From a bacterium (GTDB taxonomy: Bacteria; Patescibacteriota; Minisyncoccia; Moranbacterales; UBA9337), in assembly GCA_021159185.1 (NCBI GenBank), contig JAGGSH010000010.1:1-53192 (forward strand): a stretch of 53,192 nt of DNA, given 5' to 3'. Shown one piece after another: positions 8,877-50,580 of the stretch (position 1 is the stretch's first letter; every line of letters starts with the position of its first letter). The notes beneath the pieces are model-generated. The model saw only the letters and a list, made by a program, of their open reading frames with translations. It was not told the origin of the DNA and ran no database searches. The translations under genes and the position numbers were made by a program.

Positions 8877-11231
8877 TTATTTTATCTTTTCTAAAACCAT
8901 CTTAGAAACTTCATCTGCTTTTCCCGCGAATAATTTTTTTTCTTTCATTTTTAGATTAACAGAAACCGCAGTTTGTATTTCAAGAGTATCATTTTTTTGC
9001 TTGTCTGAATACCCTGTCCAATCCGCTTCCGCTTCCAACTTCTCTTGAAATTTTTTCGCGTATTCCACAAGTACTCCAATTACTTCTCTCTCCTTTTCCG
9101 TAAATTTCTGTTCTTTTGTCTCAGTTTGTTTTTCTTTTTCCAAATATTCCTTTAATTTGCCTCTTGGCTCAAATTTGCCATTAGTCATTTCTTTAAGAAT
9201 CTCTCCTAATTTTATATTTGATAGCTTTTCTTCATTTGCCGGTTTGACCCACATTGTTTTTCTAACATTTATCCCTTGCCTGAATTTATTGCGCAACGGC
9301 TTTCCTCTTAAATCAGAAATAAAAAAACTATCGCTTTCAGGATTCCATAAAACAATAGCGCCGCATCCGAAGGCTTTGGCTCCGTCTATCCCAGTCGGGA
9401 TTCTTCCGCCTATGTTAATTGCTATCTTTCCATAATAATCTGAATCAATGATAAATCCTTCTTTTTCCATATTCTGAAGTTCTTCCAGGGATCTTTCTAC
9501 TCTTTTTTTGTGACTTTCACTTTTGTTAAATTCTTTTTTGCCTTTTTTGTATATAAATCCGAATTTTTTTAAAAGTCCATCAGTAAGAGGTTCGGCGGGT
9601 GAAAGTTTTTTCCCGCTTTTATATTTTCTGTATTTGAAAAAGTTTATTAAATTATCCGCACTAGCCATTCTATATAACCCTAAAAGAGTCCTCCACGAAT
9701 TTTCAAAATAATTTTTGAAATACTTTTTTTCTTCCGGATATTTAAAATTATCAACTTGAGTAACAAAATTTACCAAATCGTCCAAGTATTTCTTTTTTTC
9801 CAAAAGCCCCAATCCGGTTAAGATTTCATACGTAAATTTCGCGGCAGAAACATTATTGTCTGATCCCGGCCCATGATGGTCAATAAAAACCGTCCCGTCC
9901 TTAAGAATAACTATTCCGTCTTTGCCGCCTGTGTCTATATGGAATTTTCCCGGTTCCTTGCTTTGTCCGCCTGGCGCTACATATTCAATATTTTTTTCGT
10001 CAACATCAAACCCCGCCATATTCAGCAGTTTTATGGAAATTTTTCCATCTAAATCGGTGTGATTTTCAATTATGGGCTCGCCCGTTTTTTTATCAAACCT
10101 TAATCTTCCATGAGTAACAAAATTTTTCCATAGTTCGCGGCTCTTTTGTTTGAATTTCTCGTCTCCCTCTTTCTCCGTATCCGCGTTAAGCTCTTCCCAT
10201 TTTTTAATTTTGTTCAGTGTAATTTCAGCCGCTTGGCGAATTGATTTATATTTTTCCTTATCTTCTTCTATCTTAAGCTCCTCGTTTAGTTCTTCCTTCT
10301 CGCTAGTCATTTTTTTCCTCTCTTCTCTAAACATTTCAAACACCTTATACTTTCCGCTTTCTTTGATTCTTCTAAGCGCTTTTGGAGGAATCAGCGTATA
10401 TGAACGCTTGCCGCCTTTTTTTATTAAAATAACATTTAACAATTTCTTATCTTTATCATCAAAACCCTGGACGATAAAATCAAAATAGCTCCCGTCCTTT
10501 TTTTTATTTTCATCCGCTTTCCAGATTTTTCCAAGCTGAAATTCTTCTTTTAATTTTTCTTTGTCCGCTCGTTCCGGTTCGCGCCGATATTGTTTCTTGT
10601 TTTCTTTTCCTCTTTTTTCTCTTTTGCCGGTTAAAGACAATTTCTTTTCTTTTTTGCCTAATTCAGCCATAGCTTCCGCCAGCGCGTCCAGCAAATCTTT
10701 ATTGGGATATTTTTTCTCGTCTTTTTCATTTTTATCAACTCCGTCGTTAACCTTGCCGATTATGGAATCTATTTCTTCTTCAAACGCTAACGCGTCTTTT
10801 TCTGGCATTTGCTTATTATCCATTTTTGCTTTCAGCGCGTCTTTCAAGACATTGGCCTTTTTCCCCAGATCGTCCAAAAAATTTCCAATGAAGCAGTCTT
10901 CAAAAGCGCGCAATAACTTCGGCAACCGCGGTTTTCTATTCCGCAAATAATCAACCGCTACAAACCAACGCTTGTTTTCATCCAAAGATCCTTCTTGCCG
11001 CTCCTGGAAATTCCTTATTTCCTTGATTATTTCTTCTTGGCATTTTTTTAAATTTTGTTCTTTCCTTTCCCTATCTTTTCCCTTGCTGCTCCCGATATAT
11101 TCTATGGCTACCGCTTCCGGAAAACTAAAACGGCTTTGCTCTTTTTCCAGTTTTTTAAAAACATCTTTTTGCGTGTTGTGTTTAACTAATTCCTTCATTG
11201 GGACTTTTAAATTTTCAGAACGAGAATCCAT
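8877..11231 (-). CDS. Hypothetical protein with DHH-phosphoesterase-like motifs (784 aa)
   Basis: NHTDLDG, HIDTGG and VFIDHH motifs in DHH-family order. Confidence 0.65.
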   Translation of the reverse strand: MDSRSENLKVPMKELVKHNTQKDVFKKLEKEQSRFSFPEAVAIEYIGSSKGKDRERKEQNLKKCQEEIIKEIRNFQERQEGSLDENKRWFVAVDYLRNRKPRLPKLLRAFEDCFIGNFLDDLGKKANVLKDALKAKMDNKQMPEKDALAFEEEIDSIIGKVNDGVDKNEKDEKKYPNKDLLDALAEAMAELGKKEKKLSLTGKREKRGKENKKQYRREPERADKEKLKEEFQLGKIWKADENKKKDGSYFDFIVQGFDDKDKKLLNVILIKKGGKRSYTLIPPKALRRIKESGKYKVFEMFREERKKMTSEKEELNEELKIEEDKEKYKSIRQAAEITLNKIKKWEELNADTEKEGDEKFKQKSRELWKNFVTHGRLRFDKKTGEPIIENHTDLDGKISIKLLNMAGFDVDEKNIEYVAPGGQSKEPGKFHIDTGGKDGIVILKDGTVFIDHHGPGSDNNVSAAKFTYEILTGLGLLEKKKYLDDLVNFVTQVDNFKYPEEKKYFKNYFENSWRTLLGLYRMASADNLINFFKYRKYKSGKKLSPAEPLTDGLLKKFGFIYKKGKKEFNKSESHKKRVERSLEELQNMEKEGFIIDSDYYGKIAINIGGRIPTGIDGAKAFGCGAIVLWNPESDSFFISDLRGKPLRNKFRQGINVRKTMWVKPANEEKLSNIKLGEILKEMTNGKFEPRGKLKEYLEKEKQTETKEQKFTEKEREVIGVLVEYAKKFQEKLEAEADWTGYSDKQKNDTLEIQTAVSVNLKMKEKKLFAGKADEVSKMVLEKIK

Positions 11232-11435
11232 AATTTTAATTTAATGTTTAGCCGGCATTTATTAAACAGCCGTTTTTCTAAAAAAATTATACCACAACTT
11301 TACCAAAAAACAAAAACTGTTATAATATAAATTACAAATCAACACTAATTTAATCTCGAACAATCTCTAATTTAGTTTTAAATTATTCGTGGTAATTGAC
11401 GGGTGAGTTTGCGTTAATTAGCGATTTATATCATC

Positions 11436-13076
11436 ATGCAAAATAAAAAAACAACTTATTGGCTTTTATTAGCCGTCGTAATCGCCGCCGCTTTTCTTTT
11501 GCGCGCCTATAATATTGAAAACATTCCAGCGGGGATTTATCCTGATGAAGCCGTTAACGGAACTGACGCGTTGTTAGCCAATGAAACCGGAAATTACCGC
11601 TGGTTTTACACTAATAATTTCGGGCGGGAAGGATTATTCATCAATTTAATCGCCGGCGCTTTTAAAATTTTCGGTGTTTCTATTTTCGCTTTAAAATTTT
11701 GGCCGATTATTTTCGGGACGCTCACGGTATTGGGCGTCTTTCTTTTAAGTTTTGAATTATTTCGCGGATGGCCCGCCTTTGCTAAAGCTGCGGCGGGCAA
11801 GCGCGCCGCGTTAATCGCCGCTTATTTAACCGCCTTTTCATTTTGGGCGATTAATTTTTCCCGCATCGCTTTCCGCGCTGTGATGATGCTGCCTGTTTTG
11901 GTTTTTTCTTTTTATTTTATTTTCCGAGGATTGAGAACTGAAAAATACCGCGACTTTATTCTGGCCGGACTTATTTTTGGGCTGGGCTTCCATACCTATA
12001 TCGCTTTCCGCATTGCGCCGCTTATTTTAATAATTTTATTGCTGGCGATTTTAATCAGCCAAAGAAATGTTTTCCGGCGGTTTTGGAAAAAAATTATTGT
12101 TTTTGCGATTTGCGTTTTTATTTCCGCTTCTCCTCTTTTATTTGATTTTTATCAACATCCGGAATATCTCCAATCACGCACAGGCGCTATTTCCGTTTTC
12201 TCTCCCGAAGTTAATCAAGGACATTTAATAAAAACTTTATCCCAAAGCGTTGGATTAAGTCTGGTAAAATTTAATTTCTGGGGAGACCAAAACTGGCGGC
12301 ACAATTACCCGCCTTATCCCGTTTTAAATCCTGTCGTGGGTATTTTATTTTTAATCGGATTGATTTATTTAATTGCCGAATTTTTCCATCTTTTATTTTT
12401 GCGATTCAAGAAAAAAACGCGGGACAGAAAATTCATAATTTATTCATTTTTATTAAGCTGGTTTTTTGCACTGCTCATCCCCGAATTTTTAACTGCCGAA
12501 GGATTGCCGCACTGCCTCCGTTCTATTGGAACGCTTCCGGTTGTTTACATTATTTCCGCCATTCCCTTCGCTTGGATATTAGGAAAATTTACTAACCTAC
12601 AACCTACAACTCATAACTTACAACCCATAAAGATTGCTCTTTTGATTATTTTCGCGGCGGTTTTTGCTTTTGTCGGAATTTTTAATACCGCTAAATATTT
12701 TGTGTTCTGGGCGGAAAAACCGCAGCAGCATGGAACTTTTAGCGAAAATTTTAAAAATATAGCGCTTTATCTTAATTCCCTTCCCGATGAAGTTAATAAA
12801 TATGTCGCGGCTAACGGCGGCGGCAGAATTATGGAAGACGGGCTTCCCGTAAGCGCCCAGCCAGTAAAACTTTTAACTTACCAAAAAACTGAAAACCTAA
12901 AATTTCTCCAGCAAGGGCAAGACTGCCCGCTGGAAACTCCGATGGTTATAATTTTAATGAATTACGACCAATATATTATTGACCGCGTTAAATTATTTTA
13001 CCCCCAAGCTCAAGTGGAAAAAATTGATTTAAATCCGGGATATGGGTCCGATTTCGTTTCAATAGTAGTTGAATAA
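11436..13076 (+). CDS. ArnT/PMT-family (GT-C) membrane glycosyltransferase
   Basis: LRAYNIENIPAGIYPDEA N-terminal motif and multiple TM helices. Confidence 0.85.
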   Translation: MQNKKTTYWLLLAVVIAAAFLLRAYNIENIPAGIYPDEAVNGTDALLANETGNYRWFYTNNFGREGLFINLIAGAFKIFGVSIFALKFWPIIFGTLTVLGVFLLSFELFRGWPAFAKAAAGKRAALIAAYLTAFSFWAINFSRIAFRAVMMLPVLVFSFYFIFRGLRTEKYRDFILAGLIFGLGFHTYIAFRIAPLILIILLLAILISQRNVFRRFWKKIIVFAICVFISASPLLFDFYQHPEYLQSRTGAISVFSPEVNQGHLIKTLSQSVGLSLVKFNFWGDQNWRHNYPPYPVLNPVVGILFLIGLIYLIAEFFHLLFLRFKKKTRDRKFIIYSFLLSWFFALLIPEFLTAEGLPHCLRSIGTLPVVYIISAIPFAWILGKFTNLQPTTHNLQPIKIALLIIFAAVFAFVGIFNTAKYFVFWAEKPQQHGTFSENFKNIALYLNSLPDEVNKYVAANGGGRIMEDGLPVSAQPVKLLTYQKTENLKFLQQGQDCPLETPMVIILMNYDQYIIDRVKLFYPQAQVEKIDLNPGYGSDFVSIVVE

Positions 13077-42645: not shown

Positions 42646-42807
42646 CCTTCCTCTCCCCCTTTACTAAGGGGGGGGGATCCGCCCCGGGCGGAGAGGGGGT
42701 TTTTTAATTCAGGCTGGAGCTAAAAATTTACGCGCTCAATTATTTAACGCTTTTCAAATCCCCCTGCTTCGCTGCGCTTGCTTTCCCCCTTTTCCAAAGG
42801 GGGAGTT
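42646..42807. repeat. C/G-run palindromic element with nested GGATCCGCCCCGGGCGGA
   Basis: CTCCCCCTTT..AAGGGGG arms; related sequence at 19114-19150 and 50538-50570; the 18-mer at 42675-42692 is identical to 47438-47455. Confidence 0.65.
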
Positions 42808-43905: not shown

Positions 43906-44178
43906 CTAAAGCCGTGAAAAGTAAACCCCATTAGAAAAATGATGGCTAGTCAAATTGCCGAGAGGTATTCCTTTGCATGGTTCTTTATTACAGCTTCTGA
44001 TTATTTCTTCAATGATATTTAGAAGTTTGGCGTCTTTTATTTTTTCCCTAATCAGTGACAGTAAAATCTCATGGTCAATAGAATCAAAGAATTTTTTAAC
44101 ATCGCATTTCAGTGCCCAAGCGGTTCTGGTTTTATTCCTTGTTAGCGTTAAGCAAAATTTTTTCAGCCGTTTTATAGC
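43906..44178 (-). pseudogene. Reverse transcriptase fragment (DGR-type; motifs 3-4 only, no start codon, no YxDD)
   Basis: Manual translation AIKRLKKFCLTLTRNKTRTAWALKCDVKKFFDSIDHEILLSLIREKIKDAKLLNIIEEII...KGIPLGNLTSHHFSN; not in the ORF track. Confidence 0.9.
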
Positions 44179-44285
44179 TTAGTCCAGTGAGGTCACGCTA
44201 AAAAAGCCCGCCAAATTTAGGCGGATCAAAGACTGCGAGCCTGTCCGTCGAAGCAAGCTTGTGATTTTATACAGGCTTTGTGAAA

Positions 44286-46385
44286 CTAGCGAAGGCGGGA
44301 AAAAGCAACGCCAAGGTCGTCATTGGAATAGTCAGGCCTGTCGCTGTACACCAACACACCGTCCGAATCAAAAGACCCGACATGCACAAGCTGGCCACCC
44401 GAATCACGGCCGGCAGTCCAGGAATACATATTTTTAAACAGTCTTTCTTCATTATTCTTAAAATAAGCTAGAATATCATACATAAACTCCACTGGTGATT
44501 GTCTTGTGAGTCTGGTAATTTGCAACCCCTCCAGCATTTTTGTTGCCTCCTGCCAATTATCGTCCATAAGCTTTCCGATTTTTCCTTTCTGCTCGGCAAA
44601 TTCTTTAATAGCTTCCTGAAATTCTTTCGGGATAGTTTTACCCTCAAAAACTTGCTCTTTGAGGTAATTAACAATGCTTTCCGTTTGTTCCAGATAATTT
44701 TTACTATTGGAATCGGGAATTATTTCCTTGCTGGTTAATGCCCAAGAAAGCTTTGGAGAATTATCAGTGAAAAATTCTTCTTCTTTATGCCAATCCGTAT
44801 CCCAGAAAATTTTTCCGTGTCCGTCTTTTTCAAAATCTTCAGAAAGCAGTTCTTGCATTTTTTTCATGGACAAAACTGTTCCGTCTTTCGCTTTATCCAC
44901 CCTTAAAATCAAGAATTGCCCCAGCTCCTTGGCTTTTTCTAATTCTTCTTTGGAAAACAGGATTTTCGGAATATCTTCCGCTTTCAGTTTTATGTTAAAC
45001 GCTTTTTCAATTTCATCGGGACCCAAAACATCTTGCTTGCCTAAAATTTCCTTGGCATTTTTAATTTGCTCTGAAAGTTCTCCGCTTAAACCCTCTTTTT
45101 TTTCTTCAAAAAATCCCTCAGGAACTTTTCCGCTTTCCTCTATCCTCTTCCTTATTTTTTCTATTTCAACCAAAGTCTTTTCTTTTTCCAATTCTTCAGG
45201 CGTGGCCGCTTTGCTTTCGCGTTCAATACCTTTTCGTTTTGATTCTATGGGTTGCGCATATTCAATCGCGTTAATAAGCTCAAACAACTTTTGCCTGTCC
45301 GCCTCGTCTTCCAGTTTGTTCACATAAAAATATTTCAGAGCTTCCTTCCAAACCGCGTTTATATCACCCCGATAAAAATTCTGGATGAACTTGAGAACTC
45401 GTTGCGGTTCCATGCGGTCATCATACATGAATGTCTGCGGTTGGTCTTGAGCAATCTTCCTGTTTTTCAGAAGCTCTTTGGCGGCATAATGAAACTCTTT
45501 GTATTTTTCCACTAATTCTTTCATGCCTGGAATTTCCCGAAGCTCTTCGATGGGAATTTCCGTTTCATTTGAAGTCAAAAACTTTTCAGGAACCGCTTCC
45601 TTTGTTTCTGGCTTCAAACGAAACATCATATCCACTGAACCTGAAAAAGTGTCTTTTGGCAATTCGGTAACCTCTTTTTGATATACCCATCGGCGAAGCT
45701 GGGCGGGGTCAAGCGGCTGGCGGTCCAGAAACCCTTTGCCCGGAGGATTGGTTAGAGCGATAATCTTCGTGCGAGACCTGTCTACTTTCACTCTTTCAGA
45801 AGCGTCTTCCGCTAAAACAACTTCTCCGTTCTTTTCCAATTCGTCCAAAACTTCGTGGAGACGAATAATGATGTTTGGATTGGCAGAGTTGTATTCATCC
45901 AAAATTATGACTCTGATTTTTTCATCGTCTTGGCGAAGACCTTGAGTCACAGGGCCATCCGCCCATTTGTATTCCGGGTCATTGGCCGTTTTTCTTTCAG
46001 GGTTAGGGATATATCTGCCCATCATATCTTCCACATCAGTCGTTCCGTTCAGGTTTTTATAATACACTTCCCAGCCCAGCTCGGCGCACATTTTTCTGAC
46101 TGTCGTGGTTTTCCCGATGCTGGTTCCGCCCTCAATAAGAATCGGCTGGTTAAGCTTGAAAGCGGTAGCGATTTTTTTCTGAAGTTCCAGGGAGAAGTCG
46201 TCGTTTATATAAATTTTGTCATAAGTTTCTTTTTTAGGGCAAAATTCTCCACCCTTTCCTTTGGGAAGCTCCACACCCAAATAAGCCACTGAATTTTCTG
46301 TTTCCGCAATGGGAGTATCTTTTTTCTTGTCAAAACCGCCCGCATTGAATTTTGCCGATTCGTTTTTCATATTTATTTTCTCCAT
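44286..46385 (-). CDS. MoxR/AAA_5 ATPase fused to a C-terminal domain ending in a DGR-type variable region
   Basis: GGTSIGKT Walker A, IILDEYN Walker B, TNPP..LDPAQLRRW; C-terminus YSWT..LVHVGSFDSDG..LGVAFSR. Confidence 0.85.
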   Translation of the reverse strand: MEKINMKNESAKFNAGGFDKKKDTPIAETENSVAYLGVELPKGKGGEFCPKKETYDKIYINDDFSLELQKKIATAFKLNQPILIEGGTSIGKTTTVRKMCAELGWEVYYKNLNGTTDVEDMMGRYIPNPERKTANDPEYKWADGPVTQGLRQDDEKIRVIILDEYNSANPNIIIRLHEVLDELEKNGEVVLAEDASERVKVDRSRTKIIALTNPPGKGFLDRQPLDPAQLRRWVYQKEVTELPKDTFSGSVDMMFRLKPETKEAVPEKFLTSNETEIPIEELREIPGMKELVEKYKEFHYAAKELLKNRKIAQDQPQTFMYDDRMEPQRVLKFIQNFYRGDINAVWKEALKYFYVNKLEDEADRQKLFELINAIEYAQPIESKRKGIERESKAATPEELEKEKTLVEIEKIRKRIEESGKVPEGFFEEKKEGLSGELSEQIKNAKEILGKQDVLGPDEIEKAFNIKLKAEDIPKILFSKEELEKAKELGQFLILRVDKAKDGTVLSMKKMQELLSEDFEKDGHGKIFWDTDWHKEEEFFTDNSPKLSWALTSKEIIPDSNSKNYLEQTESIVNYLKEQVFEGKTIPKEFQEAIKEFAEQKGKIGKLMDDNWQEATKMLEGLQITRLTRQSPVEFMYDILAYFKNNEERLFKNMYSWTAGRDSGGQLVHVGSFDSDGVLVYSDRPDYSNDDLGVAFSRLR
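44295..44420 (-). repeat. Putative DGR variable repeat VR1
   Basis: Homologous to 47073-47203; many differences fall at codon positions 1-2 with the third base fixed. Confidence 0.75.
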
Positions 46386-46774
46386 GTTAAACCAATCAGT
46401 TTCAGCAAACTTTTATTGCTTTTTTCAATCTGATTAAGATTTTCCTCCGTAATTAAAATTAAAACTGCTCCCGTTTGATAATTGGGATTAGCCACCAAAT
46501 TATCATTGCCGTCATACGCGTTAATTTGTCCTGTCGGATATTGGGCAAGAATGTTATAGATATTGTTTCCCAGTTCATTTTTCAGAACAAAGTAAGCCTT
46601 GTCGCCGCTTCTTACGGCATTGAATATCTCCCTGACATTTTGGGTTTTCTGAAAACCAAATTCGGATGCTTTGTTTTCCAATTTTTCCAATTCTTTCTCA
46701 TTGCCAGCTATCGCTAAACTAGCTTCTTTTGAAGAAATTGCCAGCTGTAAGAATTTTTTTATTTCATTTTGCAT
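46373..46774 (-). CDS. Hypothetical protein (133 aa) overlapping the start of the AAA gene
   Basis: Intact ORF overlapping the 46385 start. Confidence 0.7.
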   Translation of the reverse strand: MQNEIKKFLQLAISSKEASLAIAGNEKELEKLENKASEFGFQKTQNVREIFNAVRSGDKAYFVLKNELGNNIYNILAQYPTGQINAYDGNDNLVANPNYQTGAVLILITEENLNQIEKSNKSLLKLIGLTWRK

Positions 46775-47036
46775 CTATTTTATACTTTCAAAATAATTAT
46801 TTAATGTTTTTCTTATATAATTTCTTCCCCGGCCGGTTTTTAAATATCTCTCCCTTTTCATTGCATCCTTCTTATTCAGATATGCCTCATAATAAATTAA
46901 TTTCCATGGAATTCCAAATTTTGTAAATTTGCTTTTTTCCTTCATTGTGTTCCAATAATCTTTTTCTTAAATCATTTGTAAGTCCTGTGTATAATTTTTC
47001 TATTTTTTTGCTTTGCAGAATATAGACATAGTACAT
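46775..47036 (-). pseudogene. GIY-YIG nuclease, +1 frameshift in an A6 run
   Basis: MYYVYILQS..LYTGLTNDLRKRLLEHNEGK / SKFTKFGIPWKLIYYEAY..DAMKRERYLKTGRGR*; not in the ORF track. Confidence 0.85.
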
Positions 47037-47072
47037 ATATTTTCATGCGTCAAATTATCAAATAGTCAAATC

Positions 47073-48151
47073 TCAAAGACTGCGGGAGAAAGCGACACCA
47101 AGGTCGCCAAGGGAATAGCCAGACCTGAACCTACCTTCACACCATCCAAATTAAAACCACCGACATACACAAGCCTGCCATCCAAAGCACGGCGGGCAGT
47201 CCAACTATATCTATTCTCCAATATCCGTTCGCCTTTGTTTTGAAAATAAATTGCGATGTCATATAAAACTTCGGCTGGATTTTGTCTGGTTAATTAGTTT
47301 ATTTTTAGATTGCTTAGTTTTTCGGCTGCCTCTTTCCAGTCTGAAAACATCAATTTTTCTATTTCGCCTTTCTCTTTTTCAAATTCGTCTATTGCCTCTT
47401 GATAAATTACCGGTATTTCTCCTTTTCCGCCCAAGGCGGATCCGCCCCGGGCGGAAAAAACTTGGTTCTTGAGATAATTTAACATTTCTTCCGTTTGCTG
47501 GAGATAATTTTTGCCGGTTGAATTCGGAATCACTTCTTTGCTAACTAGCGCCCAAGACAATCTTGGAGTTTCATCTTTGATAAAATCCTCACTTTTATAC
47601 CACGCATCGCTTTTGATTTCCCCTTTGCCGTCGTCTGAATATAGGAGCTTGCTTCCATCGGAAACTTTACCCTTGAGAATTTCATTTATTTTTTGAAGTG
47701 TAAGCGGTTTTCCGTCTGGCGCTTTATCAGACCGCAGAACTAAAAACTGGCTTAACTCTTTCGCTCTTTCCAATTCCTCCCTGGAAAATGGAATCTCCGG
47801 AACATCTTCGGGACTGATTCTTATTCCGAAGGCTTTTTCCACTTCCTGAAATCCAAAAAATTCTTCACCCATAACTTCCTTTGCCATGTCCGTTTGCTCC
47901 TGCGCGGTTCCTTCAATCTTCTTTTCTGATGAAATACCCAAAGACATTTCAATCTGCTTGTATTTGTTTAGAACTTCTTTTAATTCGAAAATCTCCAAGC
48001 TCTCAAGGCCTCTGCCTATGGTAATTTCGCCTATTTCTTTCTTTAGTTCGGCAGCTTTTTGAAGTTCGAAAACTTCTTCCATCTCTTTCTCTGGACTGGC
48101 AGGCATTTTATCGTCTTTTTTTCCACCGAACAAAGCTTCAAATTTTTCCAT
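47073..48151 (-). pseudogene. Second DGR target paralog: in-frame TAA at 47294 and a frameshift in the variable region
   Basis: Aligns to the C-terminal domain of 44286-46385; reads on past the TAA as LTRQNPAEVLYDI...YSWTARRALDGRLVYVGGF and ends ...GDLGVAFSRSL* in a shifted frame. Confidence 0.85.
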
Positions 48152-48163
48152 ACTTTAATTATA

Positions 48164-50437
48164 CTAAAAATTTTGATAATTTACAATCATTTCCTTTATG
48201 ACACCCGCCAATTTTTCCGCCATCTCTTTAACATCAATATCAGCCAGGCTGTTAGGATAAAATTCCTTCACATGCCTCGTTCCACTGCCGATTCCAAGAC
48301 CGATGAGTTTTTGGTCTGTTTCCTGCATTATCCTATTTACTATTCTGCCCAAGTCAAATTCCGGTCCGCTATGAGCGGAAGATTCCTCTGGCAGTCCGTC
48401 CGAAAGAACTATAGCGAATTTCTCGTTTGCCCGCTGTTTTGCCAGCCTTTTTGAAGTCTCCTGAAGCGCCCAGCCGTCATCATTATAATCCGCTCTTCCG
48501 CCCTGATGATTATTGACTTCTTTTAATACTCCGCCCATATTTTCCCTGATTTCCCGCGACAGATTTTCCCCGAATGTCTGGTATTCATAAAGCCTATCGT
48601 TAAAACCAAGAATTTCTGTTTTTATAGAAAGTTTGTTTAATACTTCCGCCAAAACAATCAATGCTTTGAATGTTTCTCTTATCTTCCGCCCCGACATAGA
48701 ACCGGACAAATCCACTAAAATGGAAATGGCATAGTCTTTTTCCGTTGGCAGTTCCCGCTTCTGCCAAGCCTTGCTTTCCACGACGGAAACGCCTTTGGCC
48801 TTTTCCTGAATTCTGGTTTTAATGTTTATTTTTTTACCGGTCCTGAATCCGCTTTTCCATCGGCTGGCGCGCCTTGCCACGAAAATTTCCCGCAAATCAT
48901 TTTCCAGCTTCTCAATTATCGGCAAAACTTCTTTTCGGTATTCCTCATAGACATTGGCGTCTTTCTCTAATGATTTTTCCAAAATATCTTTGTATTTTTG
49001 CAAATCGCTCTGCCGTTGCTTTTCTCTTTCTTTGTCCAAGTCGGTTTCTGACTTTTCTTCTTCCGGCTTTTCTATTTCTTCTTTTGTTTTTTCACCATCA
49101 ATTCTTTCTTGTTTTTTTTCCAGATTATCAGAAAGCTTTCCCTCAATCTCTTCATTGATTTCTTTTTCCAGTCCCTTGATTTCTTTTTCCGCATTATCTT
49201 GAAGCTCTTTCTTTTTATCGGCTGGCAAAGAATCTATATAGCCCTTAATTTTTTGCTTGAGCCCTTCCGAAAGAGAATCCAAATCAATCGGCCTGCCTTT
49301 TGGCTCGCCTTCCCGTGGTTTCTTCTCGATCATTTCTCCCGCTTGCGATTCACTTTCTTTTTCTTTTTCTTTTTCTTCTTTTCCTTTTTCGCCCTTTTGC
49401 TTTTCTTGCCTGTCCGCTGTAGCTTTAGCGGAGGCGGATTCTTTTTTTGCCTCTTCAATAGCTTTGTCAATCGCTTCTTCCAGCTCTTTTTGTTCTTCCG
49501 GAGTTGAATTATCTTTTAATTCTTGGGGTATCGGCTGTCCTTGCCCTTCTCCCTGTCCTTTCTGCATATCTTTCATTAGCTCCTGCATCTCTTGGTCTTT
49601 CATATCTTCCTCAACTAATTTTTTAAACTCAGGCCATATTTCATCCCTGTTTATTTCATAAGAAACCTGGGCGTATTTTCGGATAAGTTCTTCGCTTTCA
49701 TCAGCTTCTTTTTTAGATGGGTAACGCCACCAGGAATCTTTAGCCGATTCCAGCGTTTCCTTAACTGTTTTCCTGACATCTTCCGGCAGATCCGCGTTGA
49801 TTACATTTTCTTCCCCTTGTGTCTCTTTATACCACTGCTTGATATATTCAAAGCCGGCTTGCATAAATTTCGGCTGATAGCCCAGCTTTTTCTCTGCTTT
49901 TTCTTTGGCTTTTTGCTCAGTATCCAAATCGCGCCGGTAGGCCAGCTTCATTTGTTCTTTGAATTTGGGATAATTTTCCGCCACGAAATTATTGTCCCTC
50001 GGGTCTTCAATAGCGTTCATCATAAAAGAAAAGCCTGCCTGTTTCCAAATCTCCAACGGAATAAAGTCGGTCCGGGAGATTCTTCTGTGCCCTCCTTCAT
50101 GAGAAATGACAAAGCGAAGATAGTCCATAGGTTTTTCCAGCAGGTCTTTCGGGTCAATTCTGATTTTATTTGCTTTAAAATCCCAGTGCCAGCCAGCCCC
50201 GGGCTTATTAAGCTCTACGGGAATTTCAAAATCTTTTCCAATAAAATATGCCAGCGAAGACAGTACTTTTTGTTTGTATTTTATTTCTTTCTGCTCTTTT
50301 TTTGAAAATGAAGAAAGAATATCTTTTTCAAGATTCTTTTCTGATTTTTCATCTTTCCTCAAGGATTCAAATTGTCGGCTAGCTATTTTCATTTTTTCCA
50401 TATCTACAATATATAGCAAAGTAGAATAAAAATCCAC
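48164..50437 (-). CDS. vWA/MIDAS-domain protein (CobT/NorD-like MoxR partner)
   Basis: HEGGH and NAIEDPR in the N-terminal domain, E/K-rich linker, ILVDLSGSM MIDAS, IVLSDG. Confidence 0.88.
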   Translation of the reverse strand: MDFYSTLLYIVDMEKMKIASRQFESLRKDEKSEKNLEKDILSSFSKKEQKEIKYKQKVLSSLAYFIGKDFEIPVELNKPGAGWHWDFKANKIRIDPKDLLEKPMDYLRFVISHEGGHRRISRTDFIPLEIWKQAGFSFMMNAIEDPRDNNFVAENYPKFKEQMKLAYRRDLDTEQKAKEKAEKKLGYQPKFMQAGFEYIKQWYKETQGEENVINADLPEDVRKTVKETLESAKDSWWRYPSKKEADESEELIRKYAQVSYEINRDEIWPEFKKLVEEDMKDQEMQELMKDMQKGQGEGQGQPIPQELKDNSTPEEQKELEEAIDKAIEEAKKESASAKATADRQEKQKGEKGKEEKEKEKESESQAGEMIEKKPREGEPKGRPIDLDSLSEGLKQKIKGYIDSLPADKKKELQDNAEKEIKGLEKEINEEIEGKLSDNLEKKQERIDGEKTKEEIEKPEEEKSETDLDKEREKQRQSDLQKYKDILEKSLEKDANVYEEYRKEVLPIIEKLENDLREIFVARRASRWKSGFRTGKKINIKTRIQEKAKGVSVVESKAWQKRELPTEKDYAISILVDLSGSMSGRKIRETFKALIVLAEVLNKLSIKTEILGFNDRLYEYQTFGENLSREIRENMGGVLKEVNNHQGGRADYNDDGWALQETSKRLAKQRANEKFAIVLSDGLPEESSAHSGPEFDLGRIVNRIMQETDQKLIGLGIGSGTRHVKEFYPNSLADIDVKEMAEKLAGVIKEMIVNYQNF

Positions 50438-50580
50438 TTCTTTATTCTTTAAAGTGACGCGGTTCAGATTAGAATTTAAGAAAGTTTAATTGCCGATTCG
50501 GGTTATTTATTGTATGATAAACAAAGATACATAGTCTCTCCCCCTTTTCAAGGGGGAGATTGAGAGGAGGTTTCTTATTT

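Follow-up and report, generated by a model that had tools for sequence, protein, structure and literature searches.

The contig JAGGSH010000010.1 of a draft Patescibacteriota genome (order Moranbacterales, GCA_021159185.1), a stretch of 53,192 nt hereafter called the window, carries on its minus strand two paralogous genes, A and B, whose 3′ ends are former variable regions (VRs) of a diversity-generating retroelement (DGR), with their divergence concentrated at template adenines. In a DGR, a reverse transcriptase (RT) and Avd copy the RNA of a template repeat (TR) with errors at adenines, and the cDNA replaces the VR. The DGR that diversified these two tails very probably once lay directly downstream of gene A, which encodes an ATPase, and has since been largely deleted, for which reason both tails are likely frozen. 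The genome, of which the window is contig C4, is a draft of 936,727 bp in 42 contigs, 96% complete. It was compared with a set of 23 related loci and with metagenome runs from a hydrothermal vent, all of one study, two of which yielded informative contigs (depth 48 and 101).

Adenine-biased divergence of the two tails

Gene A (44286-46385) encodes an intact 699-aa AAA_5 (MoxR-like) ATPase (PF07728, E=1.1e-13) which ends in a predicted FGE-type CLec domain, and gene B (47073-48151) was a stand-alone CLec-domain DGR target that is now a pseudogene. An earlier note, made without database searches, had located two tails resembling variable repeats at 44295-44420 and 47073-47203. On the minus strand these are indeed the ends of the ATPase gene and of its paralog, and the VRs, which show adenine-biased mismatches to the TRs of related loci, lie at 44295-44411 (VR-A) and 47082-47194 (VR-B). 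The tails align with 74.6% identity over 138 nt and differ 9, 11 and 6 times at codon positions 1, 2 and 3, respectively, among 37 codons, versus 88, 51 and 125 times among the 224 codons upstream. Position 3 is shared in all 15 tail codons which differ at position 1 or 2, versus 32/110 upstream (Fisher p=8e-8). The tail spectrum is thus distinct from that of the upstream part of the paralog alignment, contrary to what the earlier note would have taken as evidence against its reading.

An adenine mask was drawn from the TRs of the three closest distinct intact relatives. At codon positions 1 and 2, the tails of genes A and B differ at 15/25 template-adenine sites, compared with 5/51 other sites (p=7.5e-6), and an alternative mask of seven TRs gave 15/24 and 5/52, respectively. 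Together with the shared third positions, this result bears out the codon signature of adenine mutagenesis. The same bias is obtained when each VR is compared directly with the three closest TRs at these codon positions: VR-A has mismatches at 11-13 of 25-26 adenine sites, against 4-6 of 52-53 non-adenine sites (p ~3e-4), and VR-B at 13 of 23-24, against 7-8 of 52-53 (p 2e-4 to 4e-4). When all codon positions are included, the test of the window VRs against the TRs of L020, L023, L026 and L027 is weaker (p 0.0002-0.035). Among the nine types of codon pairs listed in the earlier note as products of AAY/AAG template codons, eight fall on template adenines; the remaining one, GAT/AAT, does not, the three closest TRs having a G at this site. 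The template word guessed there proved accurate, its degenerate form matching the TR of L023 exactly. It had also been anticipated that neither copy is the TR and that ordinary drift has acted in addition, in agreement with the changes seen at non-adenine sites: VR-B has five that are C>T or G>A, and VR-A a single C>G. A paralog pair alone thus suffices to recognise a former DGR target.

Remnants of the retroelement and its intact relatives

Beyond what had been noticed earlier, gene B was found to carry both a stop codon and a frameshift, and a DGR in cis was revealed by an RT fragment lying ~110 nt past the ATPase stop codon. This fragment (43930-44178, minus strand) was found by a Pfam RVT_1 search of the genome, which matched the window itself. 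It comprises 83 codons matching residues 123-205 of the 356-aa RT of L020, to which it is 67% identical (E=8e-41), and shares 71-73% nucleotide identity with L020, L023 and L027. It has neither a start codon nor the region of the catalytic YADD motif. Next to it, a 14-nt scrap (44183-44196) may derive from the RT N-terminus, an assignment which is tentative.

An RT match occurs in 8/23 related loci, and six of these (L013, L020, L021, L023, L026 and L027) carry ATPase-CLec, TR and RT in this order, the near-identical L020 and L027 being counted as one. L020 and L027 share the full order vWA - CLec - 133-aa open reading frame (ORF) - ATPase-CLec - TR - avd - RT, and in both the gene B ortholog is an intact ORF of 365 aa. 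The eight TR/VR pairs of the six loci served as a positive control: their mismatches number 9-20 across 25-29 adenines and 0-1 across the remaining 84-88 sites. From the relatives' TRs, ~10^14.6 to 10^15.4 variants could be encoded. The avd gene was identified in L020 (9241-9558; PF22296, E=6.5e-19), similar frames being present in four more loci; in L020, L013, L021, L023, L026 and L027 it lies on the opposite strand, between TR and RT.

Several further features of the related loci were observed. In L020, a tyrosine integrase gene (10909-11820), possibly a mobility gene for the island, is located directly 3′ of the RT gene. In L022, an adenine-derived codon of the ATPase VR, near 2530, has become the stop TAG, a dead-end variant of DGR mutagenesis. 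The same CLec domain is also found in dispersed or tandem copies in one genome with five matches (G027, L014-L018) and in L025, L028, L030, L032, L034 and L035, some of which may be remote or orphan targets.

Loss of the diversification machinery

The earlier note had found no TR in the window, and this holds for the whole assembled genome as well. The short-word BLASTN it had proposed for a template copy elsewhere in the genome returned the paralog as the sole match. In an adenine-tolerant ungapped scan of the genome with VR-A, the best non-self score was 10, whereas the TRs of L020, L023 and L026 score 49-59, and scans with half-length VRs recovered only the paralog; a 21-nt match with 3 mismatches at C8:27670 was rejected as a TR (score 16 in the half-VR scan versus 31 for the paralog). 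A genome-wide screen for adenine-biased repeat pairs flagged 13 of 6,037, all of which were, on inspection, short low-complexity or palindromic sequences, and none of them involved a VR.

No full-length DGR-type RT with a catalytic motif is present in the assembly, in which only residues 123-205 remain. The genome's only intact RT (C7:36195-37586, 463 aa; L003) was considered as a trans-acting engine and rejected, being 23% identical to DGR RTs and having no matching TR. It lies directly behind a type I-like restriction-modification operon, resembles several defence-RT models weakly, each time short of the cut-off, and is possibly a defence RT. No avd was found at the locus, and the sole bAvd-like match in the genome reaches 22.6 bits for a cut-off of 40; it corresponds to a weakly similar four-helix protein at C20:7336-7644, on a contig with no RT match.

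The cis signals are altered as well. Against the 3′ ends of 11 related targets, that of gene A shows a 60-nt insertion (44235-44294, minus strand), which is present in a single copy in the genome. It separates the end of VR-A from its conserved 3′ motif and splits this motif, providing a new stop codon and altering the last two residues. In the RT-bearing loci, all four folded targets (4/4) are followed by a spacer and a perfect 7-11-bp hairpin, the z-scores of the four folded stretches being -0.4 to -2.8, and this arrangement is absent at both targets of the window. Where the relatives have their AT-rich spacer and perfect hairpin, a short, terminator-like GC hairpin with a T-run (44207-44225), which resembles the palindromic repeat of this genome, persists 3′ of gene A, ~70 nt downstream of VR-A. 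In BPP-1, a downstream hairpin is needed for efficient homing, as described in part of PMC3240598, and by analogy we infer that this requirement extends to the present clade.

Alternative explanations

The earlier note had left it undecided whether the ATPase tail is frozen at one variant or could still be diversified in trans, and these data support the first option and do not support the second: TR, avd and an intact DGR RT are missing from the assembly, the relatives' hairpin is absent and no variants were seen in the run contigs. A tail still diversified by a DGR elsewhere in the cell, be it in an unassembled region, on a plasmid or in a phage, is accordingly very unlikely. Such an arrangement would have a precedent in the remote DGR targets reported in cyanobacteria in part of PMC7517822, and it would accord with the incompleteness of the assembly, with the single clear non-adenine change of VR-A at codon positions 1-2 and with the short GC hairpin left downstream. 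It is opposed by the absence of a TR-like copy from window and assembly, by the low identity of the only intact RT to DGR RTs and its position behind a restriction-modification operon, by the sub-threshold score of the only bAvd-like match, on a contig without an RT match, and by the insertion which splits the VR-A 3′ motif. In addition, neither VR-A nor the RT fragment was matched by a second contig at 80% likeness in the two runs, whose contigs drop rare variants.

It is highly improbable that the breaks arose in assembly, or that they characterise a minority strain of a population whose element is intact. The genome is a metagenome assembly and the compared runs may be its source; yet in each of the two runs, one 10,423-nt contig spans the locus and shows 0 differences and 0 gaps over this stretch, with no joint where the deletions lie. 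A further reading, in which the paralogs simply diverged at surface-exposed residues without any retroelement, could draw on nine differences at non-adenine template sites and on the TR comparisons which are not significant, and is already so largely refuted by the shared third positions, by the adenine mask, by the DGR RT fragment in cis and by the syntenic intact DGRs that it can practically be dismissed.

Several observations nonetheless weigh against a decayed DGR with frozen targets, or temper the support for it. The all-position test against five distant TRs is weak or not significant (p 0.04-0.23), because a close TR is lacking. Among codons sharing positions 1 and 2, third positions are not significantly less diverged in the tails (6/22) than upstream (47/114, p=0.16). 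At intact loci the same measure gives 0-1 of 28-29 differing, and the window tails are thus no longer homogenised. The run contigs, possibly the assembly's own source and devoid of rare variants, are not independent, do not demonstrate that variants are absent and give weak support, and with a draft of 42 contigs and 96% completeness a TR could sit in the unassembled part. As regards the domain that bears VR-A, its best structural match has a Z score of 9.4, which is moderate, and a Foldseek search with the model of this domain gave nothing at E<=0.001; the function proposed for the ATPase and its neighboring vWA protein is a putative one. We nevertheless consider the deletion of a DGR once located directly behind the ATPase gene to account best for the locus.

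Decay of the island

On the minus strand, the locus comprises, in order, the vWA gene (48164-50437) and gene B (47073-48151), then the remains of a GIY-YIG gene, an ORF of 133 aa and gene A (44286-46385). These genes form a cassette of ~6.5 kb (about 43925-50450). In 9/19 family loci the flanking genes are adjacent and the cassette is absent, and it therefore represents an insertion of ~6.5 kb. Among the nine is the genome of the same genus, in which the match to the window resumes at 43925. The C-terminal domain of gene A was found in 2/60 other genomes and in 0/21 of the same family. The 133-aa protein (46373-46774) is intact and conserved, has no significant Pfam match, and its orthologs (56-84% identical) lie directly upstream of the ATPase gene in 9/23 related loci.

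Two lesions are present in gene B: an in-frame stop (TAA, 47294-47296) and, within VR-B, a deletion of 4 nt near 47132. Since this deletion sits opposite AAY template codons and indels opposite AAC are described in part of PMC5758913, it may by analogy be a DGR error rather than the result of drift. Of the four main genes, only gene B, with 1.1 of 5.9 kb, carries inactivating lesions. The chance that both would lie there is ~0.03, one of the two being possibly DGR-made. The ratio of nonsynonymous to synonymous substitution rates (dN/dS) relative to L019 is 0.049 for the ATPase, 0.074 for its C-terminal domain, 0.090 for the small ORF and 0.079 for the broken gene B, and relative to L020 it is 0.085 for the RT fragment. 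These values were rejected as proof of selection after the loss, as they are equally low for intact and broken genes; for the same reason, the decay looks recent relative to the divergence from the relatives.

Within gene B, a palindromic repeat of the TCCGCC-N-GGCGGA family lies in frame at 47426-47455. It was dropped as a decay lesion, the L019 ortholog carrying it too, which makes it older than the decay. The motif has 26 matches in the genome, versus 0 in 5 mononucleotide shuffles. The family (TCCGCC-N3-12-GGCGG) is also represented at 42678-42692 of the window, and the site in gene B is a double copy. The GIY-YIG nuclease gene (46775-47036, minus strand) is frameshifted, its match to PF01541 being split in two (E=1.1e-9 and 2.3e-4). 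It occupies, 3′ of VR-B, the position of the relatives' hairpin, and in L022 a GIY-YIG gene lies at this position behind both targets (1-110 and 2660-2730). The partial copies of L022 are bordered by TCCGCC / GGCGGA arms and a second GIY-YIG piece of the genome, on C11, abuts such a repeat. GIY-YIG may represent a mobile cassette of small size that is linked to the palindromic repeat family.

The following course of events can be proposed. In the ancestor, by the established DGR mechanism, RT and Avd would have copied the TR RNA, erring at adenines, and the cDNA would have taken the place of the final ~38 codons in each of the two CLec domains, with ~10^15 possible variants to judge from the relatives' TRs. 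As to the order of events, an island of ~6.5 kb would first have entered the chromosome between two conserved genes. Deletions would then have removed the hairpin, the TR, avd and both ends of the RT gene, and gene B would have been inactivated and have drifted. It is conceivable, if rather doubtful, that this history was one of "diversify, then discard", in which a working cytoplasmic sensor-protease machine formed by the HExxH-vWA and MoxR-CLec proteins was kept and locked on one selected binding variant, while palindromes and the GIY-YIG cassette abolished the signals for homing, and both the DGR engine and the second target were shed.

The remaining ATPase and vWA proteins

Gene A retains all of the Walker A, Walker B, sensor-1 and arginine-finger motifs, and no transmembrane-like stretch was found in its ATPase (maximum 19-residue hydropathy 0.68). 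VR-A corresponds to the last ~40 codons. The C-terminal domain was modelled with a pLDDT of 95 and is predicted from this model to adopt a CLec-type fold: the top structural match, with the Z score given above, is the variable protein 2y3c of T. denticola (root-mean-square deviation 3.9, 176 aligned), and the matches below it are mostly CLec domains of FGE/EgtB type, with Mtd and TaqVP lower. Searches with its sequence gave nothing significant in the PDB (best E=0.081) and no significant family in Pfam and NCBIfam, and an Atlas search returned unnamed clusters only, the recognition score being below threshold.

The vWA protein is intact (757 aa; Pfam CobT_C E=3.5e-14, VWA E=9.9e-7), with an HExxH motif near its N-terminal end (HEGGH, residue 113) and a C-terminal vWA domain (DLSGS, residue 576). 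HExxH and DxSxS are kept here and in 4/4 related vWA proteins checked, and a vWA gene lies upstream in all four ATPase-TR-RT loci with enough upstream DNA (4/4). The vWA/HExxH protein is likely the partner of the ATPase. From what is known of the MoxR/vWA family, gene A likely forms a cytoplasmic MoxR-type ring whose CLec tip, now fixed, binds a putative target, and the two proteins together would remodel or cleave a substrate.

Comparison with known systems

ATPase-CLec proteins are the commonest published DGR targets for bacteria in the candidate phyla radiation (CPR). What the locus shows is a genuine footprint left by a DGR on two former targets. The element was a cis-encoded one of CPR and has decayed, and the locus is not an active DGR. 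AAA ATPase-CLec fusions are described as DGR targets of CPR/Patescibacteria in part of PMC10907252, and CPR targets with AAA/Midasin domains, named 'UVR4/Midasin' and P-loop 'g1', in part of PMC5758913. As in these descriptions, the window combines an AAA_5 ATPase with a C-terminal CLec-type VR of ~115 nt, and its relatives, which belong to Parcubacteria-group and Ca. Moraniibacteriota records, carry an AAY-rich TR, avd and an RT of ~350 aa. Unlike them, the window copy is devoid of TR, avd, most of the RT and the hairpins. The CPR-restricted DGR clade is, in part of PMC8144416, credited with below-average activity.

In other phyla, DGRs have been linked to MoxR-vWA systems, as set out in part of PMC10907252. 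As in the MoxR-vWA(-VMAP) ternary conflict systems of multicellular bacteria described there, a MoxR-type ATPase, a vWA protein and a DGR-varied CLec domain share one operon, and there are two targets, one of them CLec-only. In those systems, the CLec domain is borne by the vWA protein or by a separate sensor and the ATPase is separate, whereas at the present locus the CLec domain is fused to the ATPase; unlike theirs, the vWA protein of the window bears HExxH. Pfam and NCBIfam searches of the island, among whose profiles there was none for VMAP, pointed to no VMAP, TIR or trypsin gene and left the 133-aa protein without a family. In the literature searched, which lay apart from supplements and from Paul et al. 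2017, no description of a vWA partner or of such a three-gene machine in CPR was found. As to the domain itself, TvpA of T. denticola (PDB 2y3c) resembles it in being its top structural match, and differs from it in sharing 14% identity; the window domain, which is joined to an ATPase, contains large helical insertions and shows no membrane-spanning stretch.

Taken alone, the locus is an ordinary relic, a decayed copy of a known system. It touches on the question of what CPR ATPase-CLec targets bind, for which the frozen variant is a candidate bait and the intact relatives, L020 in particular, are better material. A parallel for its decay comes from cyanobacteria, where degraded DGRs, as well as orphan targets in which some TR-VR homology persists, are reported in part of PMC7517822, whose authors suggest that a DGR may be removed once a variant has been selected. 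In both cases a target or an RT remains after other parts have been lost. Unlike the cyanobacterial examples, the present one concerns another phylum and another target, and its lesions can be mapped against intact syntenic relatives. It thereby provides a mapped example of the death of a CPR DGR island, in which the cis signals, TR, avd and RT were lost and one target was broken, while the ATPase and vWA genes stayed intact.

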